64,000 bases of DNA. Source: Candidatus Kaiserbacteria bacterium (GTDB lineage Bacteria; Patescibacteriota; Minisyncoccia; Phycocordibacterales; JABAAK01). The stretch spans positions 16,889 to 80,888 of the forward strand of contig JAPOOC010000008.1 in assembly GCA_026713605.1 (NCBI GenBank), in the 5' to 3' direction. Each line of letters starts with the position of its first letter. Position 1 is the stretch's first letter. Positions 45,301 through 64,000 of this stretch are shown in pieces. The notes beneath the pieces are model-generated. The model was not told the DNA's origin and did no database searches. It was given only the letters and a program-made list of their open reading frames with translations. The position numbers and the translations under genes were made by a program.

Positions 45301-45525
45301 ATGGAGAAATCCAAGGAAAAACAGGAACGATTCAGACGGCTGGCGACGGCACGCACAAACTCCGTATTGAAAACACTCAATACGCTTGGACATTGTTCCA
45401 ACAGAAGTGCCTACCATTACTCTGAGGAGGAGGTGAAAAAAATATTCTCTGAGATTGAGAACGCTGTAAGAGGTGTTAAGAGTAAATTCCATTATCCGAG
45501 AAATAATAAAAAGTTCAGTTTATGA
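45301..45525 (+). CDS. small basic protein, translationally coupled to the GHKL ATPase gene
   Basis: 74 aa. Stop overlaps the start of the next gene (atga). Confidence 0.45.
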   Translation: MEKSKEKQERFRRLATARTNSVLKTLNTLGHCSNRSAYHYSEEEVKKIFSEIENAVRGVKSKFHYPRNNKKFSL

Positions 45526-48077
45526 ATCACAGGAAAAATAAAAAAATACTTTTAGACTTACTCAAATGTCAAACTTCTGAAGAACTTGAAAAGATTATTC
45601 AGAAAGAACGCCTTGATAAGGAAGCGTGGATTCCTTATGGTGGACGCTCAAACAATGTAGGAACAGTAGAAGGACAAATGAGGGAAGCAGAAAACGCATT
45701 GATGGAGAAAGTTACAAATTCAATTGACGCAATTCTGATGAGAAGATGTTATGAGGAAGGGATTGATCCTTATGATAAAAGTGTTGCACCAAAAACAGTA
45801 GATGAAGCAGTTGAGCGCTTCTTTGGAGGCAGAGAAAAAATTAGGGAAAAAAGATCAGAGTTTGCCAAAGAATGGTTGCGTATTACTGCTGAAGGAAAAA
45901 AAGACAGACCAACAATAACAATTGTAGATAAAGGTGAAGGGCAAGAGCCAAACATGATTAAAAAAACCATCCTTAGCCTTAATGAAAATACAAAAGAAAG
46001 AATTCCTTTTGTATACGGAACATATAATCAGGGTGGTTCAAGCCCTCTTGGTTTTGCAGGAGCGCCTGAAAAATATGATTTTAATTATCTCCAACTTGTT
46101 TTGTGTCGCAGCTCTCTAAAAAATGGAGATAAAAAAGATGGTAATCACGACCACTTTGGTTTTACGGTTGTGCGAATGCGCTTTGATGAAAGTTCAGAAA
46201 AATATGTTTATGAATATCTTGTCGAGAAAGATACAGAAAATATTTTTTCTTTTCCTATGGATGAGGTGATAAAAATAGATGATTATAAATTTGAGGAGGG
46301 TTGTGTAATTAAATTATATGATTATCAGCTTGCAAAAGGAGGGAATATTATTTTTCGTGGCTTTAATGAATTTATTGAAAAGAAACTTCCCAATTCTCCT
46401 TTACCAATTTACTTAAAAGAATTACGAAATTATAAAGGTGATGATAACTATACAATATTTGGATTAAAAGAAAAACTGATTAGAAGAAAAGATATACTGC
46501 GGAGTGGATACCCCCAAGCACTTCCTATTGACCTTGGTGAGATTGGCAAAAAAGAGATAAATCTTTTTATATTAAAACACAAGGCAGAGGCTGAAGGAGG
46601 GGAAATCAAATCGTACTTAGATATGTCTGAACGAGTTTTCTTCATAAAGGATGGGCTTGTTTTGCATGCGGAAACTAAATCTTGGCTTAAAAATGAATGT
46701 GGTTTAATTGATCTGTCTCCATATGTTATAGCATTTATTGATATTTCAACAATTAGTCCTGCAGTTGCCAAAATGCTTCATTCAGGAAGAGAAAAATTTA
46801 AGAACAATGCGACAACAAAGACAACTCTTAATAGATTAAAGGTATTCTTTTCCGGTGAAGATTTTAAAGACCTTGATAAAGAATACGGGAGACTGGGACT
46901 AAACTCGGATACTAAAATTGAAGATAGGGATATCAAAAAAGCAATACTAAAAGAAGTTGAAAACCAACCGAAATTAAAAGAACTTTTTAATATCGGAGTT
47001 GATTTTCCTGTTAAAAAAGGGCAAACATATACGCCACCAAAGATTGACTCGAAATATCAGGGAACATATCTCCCTGAAAAATTTAATCTTCTGGGCACAA
47101 ATCCACGAGAAATTGAAGAAAATTCATATTGTAGAATATCCTTTGATACCGGTGCTGATACGGATTTGTTTGAACGGCAAGAGGATAGAGGTGAGTATGA
47201 TTGGGAAAAATCAGAAAATTTTGACATTACTTTTTTATCGTTTAGAAATGGAATAACCACCTTTCGTGTAGATCCAAAAGAAAAAACAAAGCCACCTGAA
47301 GAAGAAGCATTGATTTTTTCTCTTAGTGTACCGTCCAAAGACATTGAATTAACAAGAACAATTAATATTTTATATAAAGAAAAAGTTCCCTATAACGGAA
47401 AGAGATTTCCAACATTTTTTAAACCACCTGAAGAGGTGAAAATTGTAATAGGAAAAAAGACATCCTTGCGCATAAAAACAGATGCGGATAATGATTATAT
47501 CAGTCGAGATGAAGCCCCTGGTACCATAATTTTTAAAAAACATAATGATCTTGACAACAGTACACCAAAACTTAAGGATGGAATTCTTTCTATTCAAATG
47601 CAATACACAGGAAAGGAAATAAAAAAAGTAGAAAATATAGACATAACCGTAAAAGATAGGGAGAAACACTTTGATTTCTCATTACCGGTAAAAATTATTC
47701 GAGACAAAAATAATCCAGAGGTAGATTTGCCGGAGATAGAAGTGGTAGATAAAACAAAATGGCAGCATCATACCCCAGAATGGGATCAAGAGGTTATCGC
47801 CAGAATTCCATCTTGGACAGAGTTGAAAAAAATCAGAATCAATACTGATTCTGATCCGTTTGAAGATTTGCGAGAGATACCTGGCGAACAAAGAGAAATT
47901 GCAAAGACTCTTCTGATAAAGAAGATTTACAGGGATTCAATTTGGATGTTTCTTGAGTTTAGGGATCTTAATCTCACTAGTGATAGCGATCGAGATGAAA
48001 GAGATATTGTTTTTGAGAAATCAATTCGTGCTGCATCAAAGATAACAATTCAGGATATCAAAAAATTAATTCGTTAA
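45522..48077 (+). CDS. large GHKL/Bergerat-fold ATPase domain protein (paraMORC/HSP90-like N-terminus, ~650-aa uncharacterised C-terminal region)
   Basis: N-box EAENALMEKVTNSIDA (aa 55-70), G1 box IVDKGEGQE (aa ~135-143), G2 box GTYNQGGSSPLGFAG (aa ~167-180). No match seen for nuclease motifs in the rest. Confidence 0.6.
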   Translation: MNHRKNKKILLDLLKCQTSEELEKIIQKERLDKEAWIPYGGRSNNVGTVEGQMREAENALMEKVTNSIDAILMRRCYEEGIDPYDKSVAPKTVDEAVERFFGGREKIREKRSEFAKEWLRITAEGKKDRPTITIVDKGEGQEPNMIKKTILSLNENTKERIPFVYGTYNQGGSSPLGFAGAPEKYDFNYLQLVLCRSSLKNGDKKDGNHDHFGFTVVRMRFDESSEKYVYEYLVEKDTENIFSFPMDEVIKIDDYKFEEGCVIKLYDYQLAKGGNIIFRGFNEFIEKKLPNSPLPIYLKELRNYKGDDNYTIFGLKEKLIRRKDILRSGYPQALPIDLGEIGKKEINLFILKHKAEAEGGEIKSYLDMSERVFFIKDGLVLHAETKSWLKNECGLIDLSPYVIAFIDISTISPAVAKMLHSGREKFKNNATTKTTLNRLKVFFSGEDFKDLDKEYGRLGLNSDTKIEDRDIKKAILKEVENQPKLKELFNIGVDFPVKKGQTYTPPKIDSKYQGTYLPEKFNLLGTNPREIEENSYCRISFDTGADTDLFERQEDRGEYDWEKSENFDITFLSFRNGITTFRVDPKEKTKPPEEEALIFSLSVPSKDIELTRTINILYKEKVPYNGKRFPTFFKPPEEVKIVIGKKTSLRIKTDADNDYISRDEAPGTIIFKKHNDLDNSTPKLKDGILSIQMQYTGKEIKKVENIDITVKDREKHFDFSLPVKIIRDKNNPEVDLPEIEVVDKTKWQHHTPEWDQEVIARIPSWTELKKIRINTDSDPFEDLREIPGEQREIAKTLLIKKIYRDSIWMFLEFRDLNLTSDSDRDERDIVFEKSIRAASKITIQDIKKLIR

Positions 48078-49378
48078 ATTTTTTCCATCACCACGATATA
48101 TTCATATTCGTACGCTCTTATCTTTGAAGGATTATCTTTTCCTGTAAATTTTCCTGTCTCTATGTCGCGCCATGGAGTTATCATTTTATTGGGAATTTCT
48201 CGTTTAATAAACCTAACCTTTTCAAATCCGGCATGTTGCATTTGCTCTGCAGCGACTTGTGCATTAAGTATGGCAACACCTCGTAAATTAGTATTACCAA
48301 TAATAATACATGCCTTGCCATCTTTTTTAAGAATACGATACATTTCTCCAAAAACTTTTTTCATATCCAAGAAATAATTCGCAACATCTGTTGCGAGTGA
48401 TTGATTAACCTGTGATAAGTCATTTACAATTGATTTTGCAATGGTACTATTGAATTCTCCGGTTTTTCTTCTCTTTGAACTTGTACCAATAAAGTTTCTA
48501 CGAAAGTCAATAAATTCATCACTAAACCTGCTCCATCCTTTAAAGTGTTTTGGATCATTACCAAACCAAAGCAAAGATAGTTGATGTAAATCAGCGTATT
48601 CATATGAAGTAACATATGGGGGTGAAGTGATAATTAGGTCAACACAGCCGGATTCAAGAGGAAGTTTTTTTGTAGAATCTCTACGATACATTTTTGCAGA
48701 AACTTTTTCATTGCCGGATTCAACAAGTTCAGAATAAAACTTCTCATTTTTCTTAATCATTGAGTCAAGGTGGCGTAAAAATGATTCTTTTACATTAGGG
48801 ATATCTTTATCCTTGTCTATCGTTGGTTTAATACTCTTCATCAACCAGCGTGAACAATTCTTAAGATTGTGTGAAAAAGCACAAAGAAAAAAACGCCTGA
48901 CATTATGGTTTTTTATTTTCTTGATTGCAAAATAAATCCTTTCTAACTCTTGAGCCGTTTTTTCGTCAAACCAATAATTGATTCGCCCGTGTCTATCTGA
49001 AAAGGTTAAAGGAGTGCTTTTATAATATGTTAAAAACTTGTCTTTGTAATTGGTTAGCGTTTTAGGTTTAATAGGGGTAGTTTTTGTTTGAGTTATAAGT
49101 TTTGCAATGGGGTTTATATCAAAACCAATACTTTTGTGACCCAACATTTTTGCCTCCACCAGGGTCGTGCCGCAACCACCAAAAAGATCACATATAATCT
49201 GCTCATCATTAGGTGCATAATCTTTTATTAATTTTTGTACAATTTGGGGGATAAATTTTGCAGGGTAACGGTGATAACTGTGAGTAAAAGCCGTTGTTTC
49301 TGATCTCCCCACATCACGGAAAGACCAATTTTTTCTTGGTTTTAATTTTTTAAAAGATTGTTGAAGAGAGGTAAGCAC
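48074..49378 (-). CDS. N6-adenine/N4-cytosine DNA methyltransferase (amino-MTase)
   Basis: Motif I DLFGGCGTT near the N-terminus and motif IV SPPY (IITSPPYVTSYEY). Converges on and overlaps the GHKL gene by 4 nt. Confidence 0.75.
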   Translation of the reverse strand: MLTSLQQSFKKLKPRKNWSFRDVGRSETTAFTHSYHRYPAKFIPQIVQKLIKDYAPNDEQIICDLFGGCGTTLVEAKMLGHKSIGFDINPIAKLITQTKTTPIKPKTLTNYKDKFLTYYKSTPLTFSDRHGRINYWFDEKTAQELERIYFAIKKIKNHNVRRFFLCAFSHNLKNCSRWLMKSIKPTIDKDKDIPNVKESFLRHLDSMIKKNEKFYSELVESGNEKVSAKMYRRDSTKKLPLESGCVDLIITSPPYVTSYEYADLHQLSLLWFGNDPKHFKGWSRFSDEFIDFRRNFIGTSSKRRKTGEFNSTIAKSIVNDLSQVNQSLATDVANYFLDMKKVFGEMYRILKKDGKACIIIGNTNLRGVAILNAQVAAEQMQHAGFEKVRFIKREIPNKMITPWRDIETGKFTGKDNPSKIRAYEYEYIVVMEKI

Positions 49379-53916: not shown

Positions 53917-54273
53917 ATGAATGATGCACCTAATGAAACAGAAAAACTCAACCGGAAAGAAATCGCCATTATGGTGGTGGGTGTACTTCTTGGATTGTCA
54001 GGAGGCATGGTATCAGATTACATTACTATGTTTCATAAGGAGATATTTCTGAAAAACCCTTTTGGATTTTCTTTGGTTGTTGTTTTCGTGGTTTCCGTCT
54101 TTGTCGCTTTTATTTTCATGCTGTTACATACTGATCTCTGGAAATCAACCCTTTTGTGTTCTGCGGTAACAGTTTTGAAAAAAGTGTGGAAGAGCTGTCT
54201 ATTTATTGTTGTACCTCTTTGTGCTTTGATTCTCCTTTCTTTCTGTTACGGTTACCAGATGGCAATGGGGTAA
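53917..54273 (+). CDS. membrane protein, copy 1 of duplicated gene
   Basis: 118 aa, 3 TM. ~85% identical to 56156-56518. Confidence 0.55.
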   Translation: MNDAPNETEKLNRKEIAIMVVGVLLGLSGGMVSDYITMFHKEIFLKNPFGFSLVVVFVVSVFVAFIFMLLHTDLWKSTLLCSAVTVLKKVWKSCLFIVVPLCALILLSFCYGYQMAMG

Positions 54274-54617: not shown

Positions 54618-55238
54618 TTGTTAAAATTAACAATCAGCGAACGGGTTGCAGTATTCCTTATCATCCTTTGTACTCTGATTGGACCTGCTAATGCTTATAT
54701 TGCGCGTAGCATACCTCTTCCGGAGGCGAATGTAATTTTTTACCCGCTAAAAGTTTGGGTTGATGCCGCTGTGCGGCGTCGAAACAAGTATTGGTGTGAG
54801 ATCAGGTTAGAATCCACTGTAGAAGTTCTCGGTGATGGTTTCGGGTATCTCTGTGTTGGAGACATAGCAGGTGGTGAGTTTTTGGATATTACGGATATGT
54901 TTTTTACAATTCGTGGTATACTTTTTGTTGATGATAGTGGACCACCTAATAAATTAGACATGAAAAATTATACAAAAGTTGCTGTGCTTGTTGGCTTACC
55001 GTATGTTGCAATTATGGCAGCGGTTCATGGATTTGGTTGGTTTTTAGTACTTGCGATTGTCGGTATACTTTACTTCCTACCAACTATCTGTGCGCTCAAT
55101 GCAAAGCACCACAATGTTGATGCCATAGCGATAGTAAACCTATTCCTTGGGTGGACTTTTGTTGGATGGGTAGTTGCACTTGCCATGGCTGTAACGAAAA
55201 GTGAGAAGAATCAAAAACAAAAAGACAATAGAGTGTAA
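54618..55238 (+). CDS. membrane protein with C-terminal superinfection-immunity (T4 Imm-like) domain
   Basis: C-terminal YFLPTICALNAKHHNVDAIAIVNLFLGWTFVGWVVALAMAV matches the Imm_superinfect pattern (F.P...A..R.H.N..AI..lNlllGWT.iGWv.AL.WA). Confidence 0.55.
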   Translation: MLKLTISERVAVFLIILCTLIGPANAYIARSIPLPEANVIFYPLKVWVDAAVRRRNKYWCEIRLESTVEVLGDGFGYLCVGDIAGGEFLDITDMFFTIRGILFVDDSGPPNKLDMKNYTKVAVLVGLPYVAIMAAVHGFGWFLVLAIVGILYFLPTICALNAKHHNVDAIAIVNLFLGWTFVGWVVALAMAVTKSEKNQKQKDNRV

Positions 55239-56155
55239 GCAGTGGCGGAAAAAATTTCTTGCTGTCTTAATAAAAATTCAGATGGTAATATCAAAGGGTC
55301 TGGGATTATACAGTTTTCAGATTTATAATATTGTGATTGCGGGTATCAAAAAAAGACCTCAAATTTTTGAGATCTTGATCTTCTTTTGAGGTCAGCTTCC
55401 GCAAAGCGGTACCTGCCATTCGCTTAGAGGGCAGTTAGACATAAGCCCGCCGACCAGTTTCAGTGTATTGTTAACCCCGAAAAAAGTCAAGCAATTTTCC
55501 ACACCGATTGTCTTATGTGTGTGGGCGAGGTCTATTTATGTGGGTATTGGCGTATTAAAAATATGTACTGGTTTTTCAGGGGCGGAGAGGGTGAGCGTGA
55601 CAATATCCACATAGGAGGTTAGATTTGAGCAGGGTGAGTGTAGTATAGGGGTGTGCATATACTGTTAAGAATATTGTAGTCCTATGTTTTTATCTCTTTT
55701 TAAGAAAAAAAATCTTCAGGTCTCTAATAAGGAAAGAGAGATATTGCGTCATTTTATTGATCGAGAGATTGAGAACATCAAGATGTTTGGTCCCGCAGAA
55801 GATTCTTACCAGGAGAATATACAAAGTTTAAAAGCTAAGCTTTCTTAGTTTGTGTTGTATGTTTGTTACTTGCGACGAATCCGGTGTTGGAGATCGTTTC
55901 TTTGTGTTGGGGTCTGCTTGGGTTCCAAAGGAAAATGTTTCAACATTTGAAAAATCTGTTTCTGAATTACGGCTACGCTTGAAAATTTTGAAAAGTTAAC
56001 TACTTGGTTAAAATTTTTAGGAATGATATGTGGTGTGTTCTAAAATCCACTACTGTAGAAGTTCTCGGTGATGGTTTCGGGTATCTCTGTGTTGGAGACA
56101 TAGCAGGTGGTGAGTTTTTCTTGTGATTTTTATGGTGTTGTGTTAGAATATTGTT

Positions 56156-56518
56156 ATGAATGATGTACCTAATGAAACAGAAATAGAAAAACTCACCTCG
56201 AAAGAAATCGCCCTTATGGTGGTGGGTGTACTTCTTGGATTGTCAGGAGGCATGGTATCAGATTACATTACTATGTTTCATAGGGATATATTTCTGGAAA
56301 ACCCTTTTTTGTTTTCTTCGGTTGCTGTTTCTGTGGTTTTTGTCTTTGTTGCTTCTATTTTCATGTTGCTACATACTGATCTCTGGAAATCAAACTTTTT
56401 GTGTTTTGCGGTAATAGTTTTGAAAAAAGTGTGGAAGAGTTGTCTATTTATTGTTGTGCCTCTTTGTGCTTTGATTCTCCTTTCTTTCTGTTACGGTTAC
56501 CAGATGCTAATGGGGTAA
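56156..56518 (+). CDS. membrane protein, copy 2 of duplicated gene
   Basis: 120 aa, paralog of 53917-54273 with the same leader sequence upstream. Confidence 0.55.
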   Translation: MNDVPNETEIEKLTSKEIALMVVGVLLGLSGGMVSDYITMFHRDIFLENPFLFSSVAVSVVFVFVASIFMLLHTDLWKSNFLCFAVIVLKKVWKSCLFIVVPLCALILLSFCYGYQMLMG

Positions 56519-56812: not shown

Positions 56813-56956
56813 CCGCTAAAAGTTTGGGTTGATACCGCTGTGCGGCGTCGAAACAACAAGCGCTGGTGTGAGATCAGGTTAGAATCCACTGTAGAAGTTC
56901 TCGGTGATGGTTTCGGGTATCTCTGTGTTGGAGACATAGCAGGTGGTGAGTTTTTT
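56813..56956 (+). pseudogene. orphan fragment of the 54618 gene N-terminal region (third copy of a ~75-140-bp repeat)
   Basis: Encodes PLKVWVDTAVRRRN..WCEIRLESTVEVLGDGFGYLCVGDIAGGEF in frame but without the gene context. Its antisense supplies the last ~25 codons of the M16 peptidase. Confidence 0.5.
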
Positions 56957-58153
56957 GTTGTCCAGTATGCTGTTGGCGATGCGTTGTACATCGTCGGCTG
57001 TGACGGCGAGGATGTTTCGCTTATACTCTTCGTTGTTTTCAGGTGTGCCGCTTTGGGCGTAGGCATGCATTTGTTCACTTGCGATGGCACTCTTACTTTC
57101 TTGTTGTACGGCGTTGAGCCCGAGTAGAAATTCTTTGGCTTTTTTGAGTTCTGCTTCTGGTACGGGTGTTTTTTTGATTATGGCGCATTCATCAGCGATT
57201 GCTCCCATCACCTCTGTTGTTCGCTTTCCGCCGATGCCGGTGTAGATGGCGAACTCTCCAGTGTGGGTCATGAGGTCAATGAGCGTTTTGATGGTGTAAC
57301 ATGCGCCCAACTTCTCTCGCACTCGGAGAAAGAGGCGGGAACTCATTGAGCCGCCGAAGATAACATCAAACACTTCGGTTGTGTGGCGGTCTGTGCTGTT
57401 GTATGAGGGGGTGTAGCCGCCTATGACGATATGTGTTTGCTCTAGGTCGTTGCGTACGATGGAGCGATGGGTTTCTTTTGGTGCTGTTGGTGATACGGTT
57501 GCCTGTGCGGATTGTTCACCTTGCCTTGTGTCGCTGTATAGTTTTTCTAATTTTTGTAGCGTGCTGTCACGATCAAACTTTCCGGCAATAGAGATGATGG
57601 TGTTTTTTGCCGTGTAATGTTTTTGGAGAAAGTGCGTGAAGTTATCTCTGGAGAATGAGGCGACTGATTCTTCCGTTCCTAAGATTGGGTGTCCTGCGGC
57701 GGTGTCGTGGAAGAGTGATTGATTTACCTCGTCAAATGCTCGTGATGGCGGATCGTCACGATACATCGCTATTTCCTCAATGATCACCTTTTTCTCTTTG
57801 TCCAGTTCATTTGCGGGGAATAGGGAGTATAAGAAAATATCAGCAGTTAGGTGGAGCATGTCCTGGAGCCGTTCTGCTCGTCCGGACATGTGGTAGGCGG
57901 TGTATTCCCGATCGGTATACGCATTTGCTACTAATCCTGATTCATCCATACGGGTTACCAGCTCTTGATTTGTGGGGTAGGTTTTTGTCCCCTTGAAGCA
58001 CATATGTTCAAAGAAGTGTGCCAAGCCGTATTCGTTTTTTTCTTCATTGTTTGCGCCGATTGCGACGCCGACCAGCACGCATGCCGTCTCTGCTCGGTCA
58101 TCCGTACTTAGTAGCACCGTAATACCATTTTTCAATGTCTGTGTTTCAGTCAT
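56879..58153 (-). CDS. M16-family (pitrilysin/insulinase-like) zinc peptidase
   Basis: Inverted zinc motif HFFEHMCFKG (HxxEH), 424 aa. Confidence 0.8.
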   Translation of the reverse strand: MTETQTLKNGITVLLSTDDRAETACVLVGVAIGANNEEKNEYGLAHFFEHMCFKGTKTYPTNQELVTRMDESGLVANAYTDREYTAYHMSGRAERLQDMLHLTADIFLYSLFPANELDKEKKVIIEEIAMYRDDPPSRAFDEVNQSLFHDTAAGHPILGTEESVASFSRDNFTHFLQKHYTAKNTIISIAGKFDRDSTLQKLEKLYSDTRQGEQSAQATVSPTAPKETHRSIVRNDLEQTHIVIGGYTPSYNSTDRHTTEVFDVIFGGSMSSRLFLRVREKLGACYTIKTLIDLMTHTGEFAIYTGIGGKRTTEVMGAIADECAIIKKTPVPEAELKKAKEFLLGLNAVQQESKSAIASEQMHAYAQSGTPENNEEYKRNILAVTADDVQRIANSILDNKKLTTCYVSNTEIPETITENFYSGF

Positions 58154-59840: not shown

Positions 59841-60734
59841 ATGAAGCGTACTCTTGTGTTCCTGGTGTCTTGCGTGTTGGTTGGTTCGATCGGTTGGGGG
59901 ATGTATGTGTTTGCTCGTGCTGTTTTTGACATTGAAACCTATGAAGATGGGGTCCCCACCTTTCCGGAAGATCCTTCTTTTGTTCAGAAAAAAGTAAAAG
60001 ATGCAATACGGACTATGCGTACTGATCTTGGAGATTGGACGCCGGAAGCGTTGGACGATATTATACGGTCAGCCGCGCGCTTGTCTGCTGTTGGCGACCA
60101 AGTTTCCTTCATCTCGGAGCAATTTTTGGGTACGCCGTATATGGGTAATACGCTTACCGGAGACGAGGACGGTTCTGAGTATCTTACGGTTAACCTTGCC
60201 GGGCTGGATTGCTTCACCTACCTTGACTATGTGGAGGCGGCTCGTCAATCAGGTTCGTATGGCGCGTTTGTATGGTCATTATTGAGTACTCGGTATAAGG
60301 ATGGGTTTTTGGATTTTCAAGGACGCAACCACTTTTTCTCTGACTGGGTGGAATATAACCATGCTCAGGTTTCTGATGTGACCGGGGAGGTTGGTGGTGA
60401 TGCGGCAGTATCCGTTGCAAAGCAGTTGAATCAGAAAAAAGATGGCAGTGTTTTTCTGGAGGGGATTCCAATAGTGCCACGCACCATCACCTACATACCA
60501 ACCGTTGCTCTTACTGATGAGGTGCTCCAACGACTCCGCACTGGCGATTACATCGGCATCTATACTGATCTTGACGGCCTTGATGTGACGCACACTGGTA
60601 TTTTTATCAACAATGATCGTGGCATCTACCTCCGCCATGCCTCCTCTCGAGAAGGAGTGCAACAAGTTCTTGATGACGATTTCCTCACCTATCTCAAGGA
60701 CAAGCCAGGTATTGTGGTCTATCGTCCGCAGTAG
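59841..60734 (+). CDS. DUF1460-like (NlpC/P60 or transglutaminase-like Cys) domain protein, N-terminal TM
   Basis: LAGLDCFTYLDYVEAARQSG Cys-containing core. Its 3' end is part of a direct repeat. Confidence 0.45.
   Translation: MKRTLVFLVSCVLVGSIGWGMYVFARAVFDIETYEDGVPTFPEDPSFVQKKVKDAIRTMRTDLGDWTPEALDDIIRSAARLSAVGDQVSFISEQFLGTPYMGNTLTGDEDGSEYLTVNLAGLDCFTYLDYVEAARQSGSYGAFVWSLLSTRYKDGFLDFQGRNHFFSDWVEYNHAQVSDVTGEVGGDAAVSVAKQLNQKKDGSVFLEGIPIVPRTITYIPTVALTDEVLQRLRTGDYIGIYTDLDGLDVTHTGIFINNDRGIYLRHASSREGVQQVLDDDFLTYLKDKPGIVVYRPQ
60659..60734 (+). repeat. direct repeat copy 1 (~76 bp; 3' end of the DUF1460 gene)
   Basis: gcaacaagttcttgatgacgatttcctcacctatctcaaggacaagccaggtattgtggtctatcgtccgcagtag. 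Confidence 0.8.
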
Positions 60735-60761
60735 TTAAGCCCTTGCAGTAAATAGGTAATC

Positions 60762-62051
60762 TTGTATACTGTAGAACACATGCAGCCCAATCAGAGAATA
60801 GAAGAAATAAAAATTGAGGATCTTAAGCTCTGGAGTGAAAACCCAAGAGATCCCATTCAAGATGGCATGTCTGATTTTGAGATACTGAGTAGAGCAGTGA
60901 AGGATGACAAGAAAAAGTGGAATTTGACAAAGCTCATTGGAGAGATGGGGGCATATTATGACACAAGTGAGTTGCCAACGGTTGTTCTGCGCGGTAAAAG
61001 ATACATTGTGTATGACGGCAATAGAAGAGTGGCTATAATTAAATACCTTCAGCACCCTGAGTGGAGTAGTGAGATTGAAAGGTCCCTTTTTCCGACATCA
61101 GAGCCAGAAAACTTGAAAAACATGAAGCGGATACCATGCAATGTGTGTGATGAGGAAACAGCATTAAATAATATTGAGAGAAAGCATGTAAACAGCGGGT
61201 CATGGAAACAGCTGGATAGAGATTATTTTGAGCACATTCATCGTGGTAAGGAGAAGAGTTTGTTTCTGAAGTTTGAGGAGGCGACAGGGTTAATAAGCCA
61301 GCATTCTTTTTTGAATGAAAATATTATGAAAAATGATATTCTGACTGAAGGAAATCTCGAGGATATAGGGTTTTCCTTTGGTTCGGATGGTGTGTTGGTA
61401 TCCATGTATTCTGGTAATGATGCAGAGAAGATTTTGAAAAAAATTGTTGAGTTGAAAAAGTCAGGAACAATAGGATCAAGAGGTGAGCATAAATACGATA
61501 TGCAGACACCTCTTTCTAACGATAAGACATTGTCATTAAAAAGATTTAGATCCAAAGGTTCAGCACCTGTTATATTTCCAAAAATTGAAAACCCCTCTTT
61601 GCCAAGTCAAAGAAAAACAAAGAGAACAAAAACCGAAAGACCTCAATTTTTTGGACCTTCGCTTTCTCTGAAAGAGGGTGCAGCAAACGATGTGTATCGT
61701 GATATACTGGACCTGTATGAATTTTACAAGAGTAGAAGGGATGATCTCTCAACAACTTTTCCAAATTTGATACGGATGTCATTGAGGGTTCTGGTGGAGG
61801 CGGCGATGGGTAAGGGTGGAAAAATAGATTCATACATTAAGCAAAACTTTAAAGAGGCAAAAAAAGTTTTGACGAAAGATGAGAGGACAACACTTTCCAA
61901 TTATTCAGTTAGCAACTCTAAAAAATTGATTCAGCTGCTTCAAACGGGGGCGCATCAGTACTCAAGCTCCTCAAATATTGAGCAGATAGTCGCCATGTCT
62001 ATCATCATAGGTGCAATGCTAAAAATAACACACTCAAAAGAAGATGAGTAA
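60762..62051 (+). CDS. ParB-like nuclease (ParBc/sulfiredoxin-fold) domain protein
   Basis: N-terminal LWSENPRD...YIVYDGNRRVAI (ParB-like DGxxR motif), 429 aa. Stop overlaps the MTase start. Confidence 0.55.
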   Translation: MYTVEHMQPNQRIEEIKIEDLKLWSENPRDPIQDGMSDFEILSRAVKDDKKKWNLTKLIGEMGAYYDTSELPTVVLRGKRYIVYDGNRRVAIIKYLQHPEWSSEIERSLFPTSEPENLKNMKRIPCNVCDEETALNNIERKHVNSGSWKQLDRDYFEHIHRGKEKSLFLKFEEATGLISQHSFLNENIMKNDILTEGNLEDIGFSFGSDGVLVSMYSGNDAEKILKKIVELKKSGTIGSRGEHKYDMQTPLSNDKTLSLKRFRSKGSAPVIFPKIENPSLPSQRKTKRTKTERPQFFGPSLSLKEGAANDVYRDILDLYEFYKSRRDDLSTTFPNLIRMSLRVLVEAAMGKGGKIDSYIKQNFKEAKKVLTKDERTTLSNYSVSNSKKLIQLLQTGAHQYSSSSNIEQIVAMSIIIGAMLKITHSKEDE

Positions 62052-62859
62052 ATCTCCACTCAGGTATCCTGGAGGAAAAGCAAAGTTTAGCGGATACTTT
62101 GCTGATATTTTGAAAAAGAAGGACATACAATCCCCTATGTTTGTTGAGCCATATTGTGGTGGCGCGGGAGCTGCTATAAAACTTTTATTGTCTGGAATGG
62201 TCGGAAAGATATATTTAAATGATATTGATAGAAGTATTTATGCCTTTTGGCACTCTGTTCGCAATGAGAATGAACGATTGGTGCGGAAAATTATGAAAAC
62301 TTTAATTACACTTGATGAATTTGACAAACAGAAAGTTATTCAATCAAAAAAAGATAGCGTTGATTTATTTACTCTGGGATTCTCAACCTTATTTTTAAAT
62401 AGGACAACATTTTCTGGTATTATTTCTGGCGGACCTATTGGGGGGAGGAAGCAGTCAGGTGCATATCTCCTTGATTGTAGATTCAACCGAAGGGAAATTG
62501 CAAGGCGGGTACAAAGAATTGGAGAATATAAAAAGCAAATAAGAATTTTTAACAAGGATGCGGAAGATTTTTTAAATTTGTCAACAATCAATAATCTGCC
62601 AAAGGAGAGAGCAATCTTTTATGTAGACCCACCGTATGTTGAAAAAGGCCCGTCCTTGTATTTGAGTATATATACACTTGAAGATCATGCGAAGATAGAA
62701 AAATTGTTGCGAGGGTGTGATAAGCATGTATATGTTTCCTATGACGACTGTAAAGAGATACGAGAAATTTATAGCAAATGGAGTAAGCAAAAAGTGGTTG
62801 TGCCACATCATGCTGGTCAATTTAAAATGGGCAAGGAAGTTATTCTGTCTATGCAGTAG
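62044..62859 (+). CDS. dam: D12-class N6-adenine DNA methyltransferase (Dam family)
   Basis: RYPGGKAKF...FVEPYCGGAGAAIKLL motif I region and DPPY (FYVDPPYVEKG). Confidence 0.8.
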   Translation: MSKSPLRYPGGKAKFSGYFADILKKKDIQSPMFVEPYCGGAGAAIKLLLSGMVGKIYLNDIDRSIYAFWHSVRNENERLVRKIMKTLITLDEFDKQKVIQSKKDSVDLFTLGFSTLFLNRTTFSGIISGGPIGGRKQSGAYLLDCRFNRREIARRVQRIGEYKKQIRIFNKDAEDFLNLSTINNLPKERAIFYVDPPYVEKGPSLYLSIYTLEDHAKIEKLLRGCDKHVYVSYDDCKEIREIYSKWSKQKVVVPHHAGQFKMGKEVILSMQ

Positions 62860-62864
62860 CGAGC

Positions 62865-62940
62865 GCAACAAGTTCTTGATGACGATTTCCTCACCTATCT
62901 CAAGAACAAGCCAGGTATTGTGGTCTATCGCCCGCAGTAG
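62865..62940 (+). repeat. direct repeat copy 2 (~76 bp, 4 mismatches to copy 1)
   Basis: gcaacaagttcttgatgacgatttcctcacctatctcaagaacaagccaggtattgtggtctatcgcccgcagtag. Confidence 0.8.
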
Positions 62941-62988
62941 TGCCGCTTTGCCGGCAGAGGAGAGTAAAAAGGTGAGTACTATATACAT

Positions 62989-63765
62989 ATGCAGGTATTT
63001 TTTGACACACAAAAGAAGGAGGTAGAGAAATATAGTAGTGAATCACAAAGAATTAGATTTTTGTCTGAACGCTGGGTTGGTAATGAAATCTTTTGTCCGC
63101 ACTGCGGAGAAGGAAGTTTATACCCGTTTGAAAACAATCGACCTGCAGCTGATTTCTATTGTAGGAATTGCAAGGAGGAGTATGAATTAAAAAGCAAGAA
63201 AAATGCTATTGGTGGCGAGGTGTTGGATGGGGCGTATAAAACAATGATTGAGCGACTACAAAATCACAATAATCCACATTTCTTTTTTTTGACCTATAAC
63301 CCTGCGGACTACTCAATTAAAAACTTTATGGTTATACCAAAGCACTTTTTTGTTCCGAGTGTTATTAAGAAGAGGAAGCCCTTATCTTCGAATGCAAGAC
63401 GGGTGGGTTGGGTTGGTTGTAATGTCTTGCTGAAAAATATCTCTGAGAGTGGAAAAATTTTTTATGTCAAAGATGGGTATGTTGAGAAAAGGAGGAATGT
63501 TTTGAAAAATTGGCAGAGAACTTTGTTCTTGAGAGATGCTCGGAAAGCAGAGTTGAGAGGGTGGCTGTTGGATGTTATGTATTGCATAGATACATTAGGC
63601 AGAAAAGAATTCACTTTGCAAGAGATGTACTCTTTTGAAAAGATATTGAATGAAAAACATCCTAACAATGTAAATATAAGACCAAAAATTAGACAGCAAC
63701 TACAGTTTTTGCGAGATAAGAATTATCTTGTTTTTCTTGGTGCTGGAAAGTATAAAGTGAGATAA
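62989..63765 (+). CDS. DpnI-like / Dam-replacing-protein (DRP) family methyl-directed endonuclease homolog
   Basis: CPHCGEGSLYPFENNRPAADFYCRNCKEEYELKSKK and NNPHFFFLTY...RKPLSSNARRVGW match, from memory, the DpnI/DRP N-terminal domain. C-terminal winged-helix-like region. Confidence 0.5.
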   Translation: MQVFFDTQKKEVEKYSSESQRIRFLSERWVGNEIFCPHCGEGSLYPFENNRPAADFYCRNCKEEYELKSKKNAIGGEVLDGAYKTMIERLQNHNNPHFFFLTYNPADYSIKNFMVIPKHFFVPSVIKKRKPLSSNARRVGWVGCNVLLKNISESGKIFYVKDGYVEKRRNVLKNWQRTLFLRDARKAELRGWLLDVMYCIDTLGRKEFTLQEMYSFEKILNEKHPNNVNIRPKIRQQLQFLRDKNYLVFLGAGKYKVR

Positions 63766-63789
63766 ATTTTGCTGTATTATGAGGGTATA

Positions 63790-63945
63790 TGGAGGTATTG
63801 AATAAAAAAGATGAAAGGGATTTATTAGACCAAGCGATGGCGCTTTTAATAAAAGTGCAGTTGGGTAATGGAAATAAAAAGGTGGGGCAAACCCTTGACA
63901 GCATCACGGATGATTTGGACTCTCTTCTCTATGATGAGTATTAAG
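63790..63945 (+). CDS. small acidic hypothetical protein
   Basis: 51-aa ORF with AGG-rich upstream region. Low support. Confidence 0.2.
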
Positions 63946-64000
63946 GTCGGATCACTGCGATATTTTTTTACAAATGGTATACTATAAAGGTGTGTCAAAA

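Follow-up and report, generated by a model that had tools for sequence, protein, structure and literature searches.

Adjoining PD-Lambda-5-type and DpnI-type genes in a Candidatus Kaiserbacteria defence island

Genes at the locus

The window considered here is a stretch of 64,000 nucleotides of a Candidatus Kaiserbacteria genome; near its right end, on the plus strand, it holds a gene for a D12-class DNA methyltransferase (gene B) and, after a gap of 129 nt, a gene for a homolog of the methylation-dependent endonuclease DpnI (Table 1). The original prediction on this DNA had presented these two open reading frames (ORFs) as a Dam-family methyltransferase placed next to a homolog of DpnI and of the Dam-replacing protein (DRP), and had seen in them a potential self-conflict. 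Both ORFs are present, and their pairing is real: the methyltransferase matches PF02086 above the cut-off and its neighbor matches the full PF06044 profile, far beyond chance in both cases. What had been missed is the two-gene operon of the PD-Lambda-5 type in which the methyltransferase comes second, after gene A, and also that the region is a defence island. When scanned for promoters and terminators, the 129-nt gap gave nothing above the level of shuffled sequence.

Regarding the DpnI homolog, it covered the full profiles of PF06044 DpnI (E 1.5e-73, 246.8 bits, cut-off 26.7) and PF17726 DpnI_C (E 5e-30, 103.9 bits, cut-off 23), scored 356.5 bits against the PADLOC model mREase_II, and aligned end to end with the solved DpnI of Streptococcus pneumoniae (4ESJ/4KYW; E 1.7e-77); its N-terminal domain is of the PD-(D/E)XK type with a Cys4 zinc site, and its C-terminal domain is a winged helix. 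Residues were mapped by a HMMER alignment onto those defined in PMC3424567 and PMC4117772. The catalytic E25, D53, E64 and K66 of DpnI correspond to E27, D55, E66 and K68 of the homolog, and all four zinc cysteines are kept (C36, C39, C58 and C61), as are the guanine and minor-groove readers S17, N48, R126 and R135, the methyl cleft formed by L129, R135, W138 and G140, and the winged-helix residues K229, R231, Q232 and Q235; the sole change is that of E228 into proline. The mapped positions are invariant in a 12-sequence alignment of the homolog with 11 patescibacterial relatives. Membership in the DRP/DpnI family and the integrity of the PD-(D/E)XK residues, the two checks proposed for this gene, were both confirmed, and the homolog is predicted to be an intact type IIM endonuclease dependent on Gm6ATC.

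A dead or re-targeted DpnI homolog had been offered as one way out of the conflict, and the conserved catalytic, zinc and readout residues do not support it. In such a case the protein would have changed specificity or taken a non-nuclease role, and the methylation made by its neighbor would be irrelevant; the replacement of E228 in the winged-helix pocket points in this direction, together with the fact that the function of the patescibacterial members is deduced from sequence. However, the catalytic, zinc, guanine-reading and methyl-cleft residues are all conserved and invariant across the homologs, the identity to DpnI is high over the full length, and single alanine changes in the winged-helix pocket of DpnI have little effect on fully methylated DNA (PMC3424567), so that this alternative is very improbable.

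As for gene A, the mechanical ORF begins at TTG 60762 and the start chosen is the ATG at 60780, and its last 8 nt are shared with the start of gene B. No Pfam or NCBIfam match was obtained for gene A, which matched 23 PADLOC PD-Lambda-5_A models, the best with 51.7 bits (E 1.5e-14) and some covering residues 13-362. The AlphaFold model, built with 36 homologs, had a pLDDT (predicted local distance difference test) of 86.6; it displays an N-terminal ParB/Srx-like domain with the motifs NPR and DGNRR, whose top Foldseek matches are ParB CTPase domains (probability 1.0), and a C-terminal helical bundle with weak HEPN matches (Foldseek probability 0.3-0.44). R336 and H392 of the C-terminal part are conserved, no clear Rx4-6H motif was seen in the protein on inspection by eye, and its homologs, more than 1100, are every one unannotated. 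Judging from the profiles and the predicted fold, gene A appears to be a relative of PD-Lambda-5_A, encoded directly upstream of component B in the same operon, and it is presumed to be the effector or sensor partner of the methyltransferase.

Table 1. Features at the right end of the window, in window coordinates
Feature	Position	Strand	Description
AmiA-like gene	59841-60734	+	PF07313, E 4.3e-70
Direct repeat, copy 1	60655-60735	+	Last 78 nt and stop codon of the AmiA-like gene; left cassette boundary
Gene A, PD-Lambda-5-type module	60780-62051	+	423 aa from ATG 60780; PD-Lambda-5_A models and ParB-like fold
Gene B, D12-class methyltransferase	62044-62859	+	271 aa; PF02086, PD-Lambda-5_B
Direct repeat, copy 2	62861-62941	+	Non-coding duplicate of the AmiA-like 3' end; right cassette boundary
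DpnI homolog	62989-63765	+	258 aa; PF06044 and PF17726
51-aa ORF	63789-63944	+	24 nt 3' of the DpnI homolog
DUF87/HerA-like ATPase gene	63974-64000, then past the window edge	+	776 aa; PF01935; PADLOC HerA, 105 bits

Class and specificity of the methyltransferase

The methyltransferase matched PF02086 MethyltransfD12 over positions 1-242 of the 253 of the profile (E 8.1e-19, 68.8 bits, cut-off 22), with the motifs DPPY and EPxxGGxG (EPYCGGAG) intact, and the PADLOC model PD-Lambda-5_B (PDLC04018) over positions 4-269 of 291 (323.2 bits, E 3.5e-97); on these profiles it is classified as an alpha-class (D12) amino-methyltransferase of the PD-Lambda-5_B family. A single-sequence search of all PDB sequences gave M.CbeI (7M6B) as sole match, and the same protein was the only significant one for a profile of 19 family members (E 1.5e-29); this profile did not find the Dam of Escherichia coli (EcoDam), T4 Dam or DpnM in the PDB, even at E<=10. 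M.CbeI is an alpha-class enzyme that produces N4-methylcytosine (m4C) in GGCC despite its DPPY motif (PMC8616854), and therefore the label of adenine methylase is not certain for the enzyme of the window.

With regard to Dam itself, the model used was NCBIfam TIGR00571, which has a curated cut-off of 114.85 bits: the methyltransferase scored 66.5 bits, under this value, and EcoDam, taken as control, 352.9 bits. When EcoDam was the phmmer query, no ORF of the whole window matched at E<=10. The EcoDam residues N120, R124, P134 and Y138 are aligned with S, S, D and N in the methyltransferase, and Y119 and L122 with F and I; EcoDam tells the fourth base pair apart chiefly through R124, the roles of the EcoDam residues being those given in PMC4417163. 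The recognition hairpin also has a 6-residue insertion ('GGPIGG..Q.G.Y..DCRFN'), conserved family-wide. In the case of the E. coli PD-lambda-5 system (Vassallo et al. 2022), cloning required a derivative of MG1655 deleted of the mrr-containing region; this host is Dam+, and therefore the methylation pattern of the E. coli enzyme would be other than that of Dam.

The Dam-family name given in the original prediction holds at the level of the D12 class only; on the Dam model and the reader residues the protein does not qualify as a Dam, and its site is predicted to be other than GATC. A methyltransferase not specific for GATC was another of the ways out of the conflict, and it is the one favoured by the Dam model, the PDB profile search, the reader residues and the membership in PD-Lambda-5_B.

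The avoidance of palindromes was also considered as a guide to the target of the methyltransferase, and no assignment was possible. ACGT is nearly missing from the window (4 observed vs 120 expected) and is absent from L001, the extended contig of this locus (observed/expected 0/28; window coordinate = L001 coordinate + 52988), and from L007 and L008, which have the most similar methyltransferases (0/18 and 0/24). The depletion does not follow the module cleanly: L009, L010 and L093, all with A-B, have a normal frequency, and some patescibacterial loci devoid of A-B are depleted as well. GATC is mildly under-represented in the window (0.72).

GGCC is depleted in the window too (36 vs 126), and the scarcity of both ACGT and GGCC suggests a long exposure of this Kaiserbacteria lineage to restriction specific for these sites. 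A further DNA methyltransferase of 434 aa (48074-49378, minus strand; PF01555 N6_N4_Mtase, motif SPPY) is convergent, with a 4-nt overlap, with an ORF of 851 aa that has no Pfam match (45522-48077, plus strand); the two may be a further pair resembling a restriction-modification (R-M) system, and could account for the avoidance of ACGT or GGCC.

Conservation of the linkage and insertion of the cassette

A-B is a conserved unit in the relatives, and its adjacency to DpnI is not conserved. Of the methyltransferase homologs encoded on long contigs, the four nearest (57-73% identity) are each preceded by an abutting gene of ~430 aa that carries no annotation, and a DpnI gene is absent from these contigs; in one of them, L007, A-B comes after an AmiA-like gene, just as at the present locus. 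A further set of 80 metagenome loci, more distant and centred on the methyltransferase, included 54 with enough upstream sequence, and 50 of these had an abutting upstream ORF on the same strand, which matched the gene-A profile in 26 cases; of 10 non-matching ORFs sampled, 6 were strong PD-Lambda-5_A members and 4 were OLD/Gabija-like ABC ATPases. A DpnI gene was found in 1 of the 80. In the metagenome loci L104, L112, L131 and L164, an OLD/Gabija/PARIS-like ABC ATPase of 550-640 aa precedes a PD-Lambda-5_B-type methyltransferase in place of the ParB/HEPN protein, and effectors of two or more kinds seem to accompany this methyltransferase family.

Seen from the other gene, each of the three nearest DpnI homologs (62-68% identity) stands alone among housekeeping genes. 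Of 80 genome loci with DpnI homologs, mostly from Patescibacteria, four have a D12 methyltransferase within 6 kb, which in no case passes the Dam model, and one has the A-B module beside DpnI. Among those four D12 genes, only that of L048 is directly adjacent (Patescibacteria metagenome-assembled genome, MAG, DEIN01000001.1; 3292-6753): here an N6_N4 methyltransferase, an IceA/NlaIII-type endonuclease (PF05315, E 9e-114) and a D12 methyltransferase of 360 aa stand directly upstream of the DpnI homolog, and the D12 enzyme is part of a non-GATC R-M system of the IceA/NlaIII type. If the L048 system makes Cm6ATG, its mark would agree with the relaxed preference, S-m6A-T-S, reported for the DpnI winged helix, and not with the strict Gm6ATC one of the catalytic domain. 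Methyl-dependent nucleases with a winged helix usually stand alone, and the methyltransferases near them are inactivated or have a specificity that does not conflict (PMC11037411); the linkage pattern of the window matches this observation. Finally, in L093, DNA-identical to the metagenome locus L128, the order is DpnI, a 139-aa ORF, A and then B, which is not the order of the window, with 46-53% identity between the proteins of the two loci; it is a second, independent coexistence of both modules, which is evidently tolerated.

The boundaries of A-B are marked by an 81-nt direct repeat, detected by a repeat search, with 78 of 81 positions identical and a spacing of 2206 nt. The second copy begins one base past the stop codon of the methyltransferase and still reads as the C-terminus of AmiA, QQVLDDDFLTYLKNKPGIVVYRPQ and a stop. 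The repeat pair brackets A-B exactly, and therefore A-B is demonstrably a discrete insertion of 2.2 kb between the AmiA-like gene and the DpnI gene; in L007 the order AmiA-A-B occurs with no 81-nt repeat. The likely route is the single-crossover integration of a circular fragment carrying 81 nt of the AmiA 3' end together with A-B, in which case the DpnI gene would formerly have been 47 nt downstream of the AmiA-like gene. No integrase gene was called in ~20 kb of contig around the insertion site. An empty site, with DpnI directly after AmiA, was sought and not found: all contigs coding for the identical AmiA protein have gene A downstream of it. The last of the ways out named in the original prediction, a recent insertion under counter-selection, is right about the insertion, and no sign of counter-selection accompanies it: both genes are intact in every assembly containing them.

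The M16 peptidase gene of the window (56879-58153, minus strand) has its 3' end and the sequence downstream of it in three copies (54744-54883, 56019-56119 and 56813-56955), which are 97-98% and 78% identical and bracket segments of small genes, among them a duplicated gene of ~120 aa (53917-54273 and 56156-56518, 91% DNA identity). The architecture is that of the AmiA 3'-end repeat and hints at a recurrent insertion of cassettes beside core genes in this genome.

The adjacency could also be more than accidental, with the PD-Lambda-5-type pair and the DpnI homolog selected together, for instance if DpnI caught those phages that escape the A-B module by means of a Dam-type methylase. The two independent juxtapositions, with different gene orders, agree with it, and R-M and modification-dependent enzymes are known to cluster in defence islands (PMC11037411); against it, the association is rare in both sets of 80 loci, the nearest homologs of either gene come without the other, and the flanking repeat indicates that the two were acquired separately, which makes such a partnership unlikely. 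The most remote of the readings is a suicide switch triggered by methylation, on which the recurrence of the pairing in a second lineage bears: the ParB/HEPN partner would hold the methyltransferase silent or mis-targeted until infection, when GATC-type sites would be methylated throughout the genome and DpnI would destroy the DNA of host and phage alike, as a form of abortive infection; this seems hardly credible.

The surrounding region is a low-GC (guanine-cytosine) defence island of ~9.5 kb, with a GC fraction of 0.29-0.40 vs 0.48-0.50 in the flanks. On the longer contig, the order is AmiA-like gene, A, B, DpnI, 51-aa ORF, 776-aa DUF87/HerA-like ATPase, Shedu (SduA), a BglII-type R-M system, mreB, rplI and an aldolase gene, and the part of the island past the window edge (63974 onward) corresponds to L001 10986-16873. 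The BglII-type system includes a controller (C) protein, and its methyltransferase has the motif SPPY, of the N4-cytosine type. In the 776-aa ATPase, DUF87/HerA-like is the sole recognisable domain (Pfam match at residues 445-517); the PADLOC HerA match lies closer to the C-terminus, and ~440 N-terminal residues are unannotated. A single operon of DpnI with this ATPase was considered and dropped, as the closest DpnI homologs have no such neighbor. The 51-aa ORF has no Pfam match. A Paceibacterota genome (L013/L014) has an ORF of 60 aa, 61% identical to it, at the corresponding place behind its own DpnI homolog; no counterpart was found in any other fetched locus, other DpnI loci included, and the 51-aa ORF may be a lineage-restricted companion gene of the DpnI homolog.

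Two probably compatible modules and their comparison with known systems

The most probable reading, held with considerable confidence, is that the locus hosts two independent and compatible defence modules that adjoin in a defence island, a non-GATC cassette of the PD-Lambda-5 type having been inserted beside a solitary DpnI-type enzyme. The first module (60780-62859) would consist of the ParB/HEPN-like protein translationally coupled to the D12-class methyltransferase; the latter would mark the host DNA at its own non-GATC site, with N6-methyladenine (m6A) or possibly m4C, and the gene A protein would act on invaders lacking this mark, by analogy with the validated E. coli PD-lambda-5. The second module would be the solitary DpnI-type enzyme, predicted to cut only GATC adenine-methylated on both strands, and its targets would therefore be Dam-modified phage or foreign DNA. 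If no Gm6ATC comes from the first module, the host chromosome is not a substrate of DpnI, and the potential self-conflict is probably not real, the methyltransferase having neither the Dam-model score nor the GATC readers and belonging to PD-Lambda-5_B.

Some considerations weigh against this reading. The recognition sequence and the modified base of the methyltransferase are deduced from its sequence, as the activity of the DpnI homolog is from residue conservation only; the alignment of the hairpin to EcoDam, at 20% identity, may be imprecise and is supportive, not decisive; some divergent D12 enzymes could still modify GATC or a subset of it, e.g. CGATCG; the fit of gene A to the PD-Lambda-5_A models is moderate, and the assignment of its C-terminus to HEPN is weak. 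As for the persistence of the arrangement, several metagenome assemblies, like the Candidatus Kaiserbacteria MAG GCA_001753035.1 (contig MKWU01000165.1), encode identical proteins, the contig being recorded for the samples ERZ27241795-8, JGI 3300027532 and 3300027951 and SRR8092710, and the DNA of the locus is 100% identical in all assemblies containing it; therefore they are all one clone, and their intactness in many samples tells little about long-term stability. For the same identity of every copy, polymorphism between assemblies was dropped as a gauge of selection.

The corresponding alternative is a real conflict, in which the methyltransferase makes Gm6ATC, or a subset of sites containing GATC, and the cell survives with an unstable arrangement where one of the two genes is silent, poorly expressed or transient. 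The cassette is demonstrably inserted next to the DpnI gene, sequence cannot reveal the specificity of the methyltransferase, and evolutionary persistence is not shown by a single clone. Nevertheless, neither the curated model nor the profile search of the PDB identifies the enzyme as a Dam, its GATC readers are replaced, both ORFs are intact with all their motifs, and the independent genome L093/L128 has both modules adjoining. Moreover, DpnI and DpnII are classically incompatible, and a GATC methylase entering a DpnI+ cell would be lethal at once; the establishment of the cassette therefore argues for compatibility. A genuine conflict is, on balance, quite improbable, and the reading of two compatible modules is preferred.

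In conclusion, the apparent paradox is gone once the Pfam class is kept distinct from the specificity, since a methyl-dependent GATC cutter can adjoin a methylase of the class of Dam; the methyltransferase is named 'DNA adenine methylase' by automated annotation, which calls for caution. The locus is an example of PD-Lambda-5-type systems and DpnI-type enzymes in ultra-small genomes of the candidate phyla radiation (CPR), where a defence island of ~9.5 kb can be packed between housekeeping genes, and its cassette lies between two copies of the 3' end of a core gene, no integrase being seen in the sequence examined; together with the similar repeat at a second site of the window, it hints at a way in which such genomes may shuffle defence genes. 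Current understanding is not overturned: the explanation is an ordinary one, and both genes belong to known kinds.

Among the known systems, PD-lambda-5 is labelled 'ParB/HEPN, methyltransferase' (Vassallo et al. 2022), and the validated E. coli system is described as a compacted 'RM+Abi' system; no literature on its mechanism or recognition motif was found beyond the original screen. The module of the window resembles PD-lambda-5 of E. coli ECOR7 (RCQ13837.1, RCQ13838.1) in being a two-gene operon with the same order, a ParB-like N-terminus and a helical C-terminus; it differs in that gene A is divergent, with 51.7 bits at best, and known from its sequence, and in that the host is a Kaiserbacteria and the cassette is flanked by the 81-nt target duplication, whereas the E. 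coli system is in a P2-like prophage hotspot.

The methyltransferase has in common with E. coli Dam, T4 Dam and DpnM the Pfam D12 class, the DPPY motif and the N-terminal motif that binds S-adenosylmethionine; unlike them, it fails TIGR00571, has no profile-search similarity to the solved Dams, has the reader residues replaced and a hairpin 6 residues longer, and, unlike the DpnII cassette, it has no DpnII-type endonuclease as partner. With M.CbeI of Caldicellulosiruptor bescii (7M6B) it shares the 'LNRxTFSG...' region and DPPY, but the identity is low, the partner of M.CbeI is a HaeIII-like enzyme while that of the window is ParB/HEPN, and the product in the window may be m4C or m6A.

As for the DpnI homolog, the drg/NmeBII ('Dam-replacing') gene of Neisseria meningitidis is of the same Pfam family, of which it is the founding member, and is found in a genome lacking Dam methylation; the Neisseria gene occupies the dam locus, whereas that of the window follows the AmiA-like gene in a defence island, with no replaced dam evident. 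The closest likeness is to R.DpnI of S. pneumoniae (dpnC; 4ESJ/4KYW). The pneumococcal gene belongs to a dpnC-dpnD cassette and the window gene to a multi-system island of a CPR bacterium, where the 51-aa ORF downstream is not shown to be related to dpnD and the activity of the enzyme is predicted; the pocket of the winged helix has P in place of E228. The other four of its five residues are the same, and the two proteins share the two-domain architecture, the length, the E-D-E-K set, the Cys4 site, the guanine-reading arginines and the L/R/W/G cleft.

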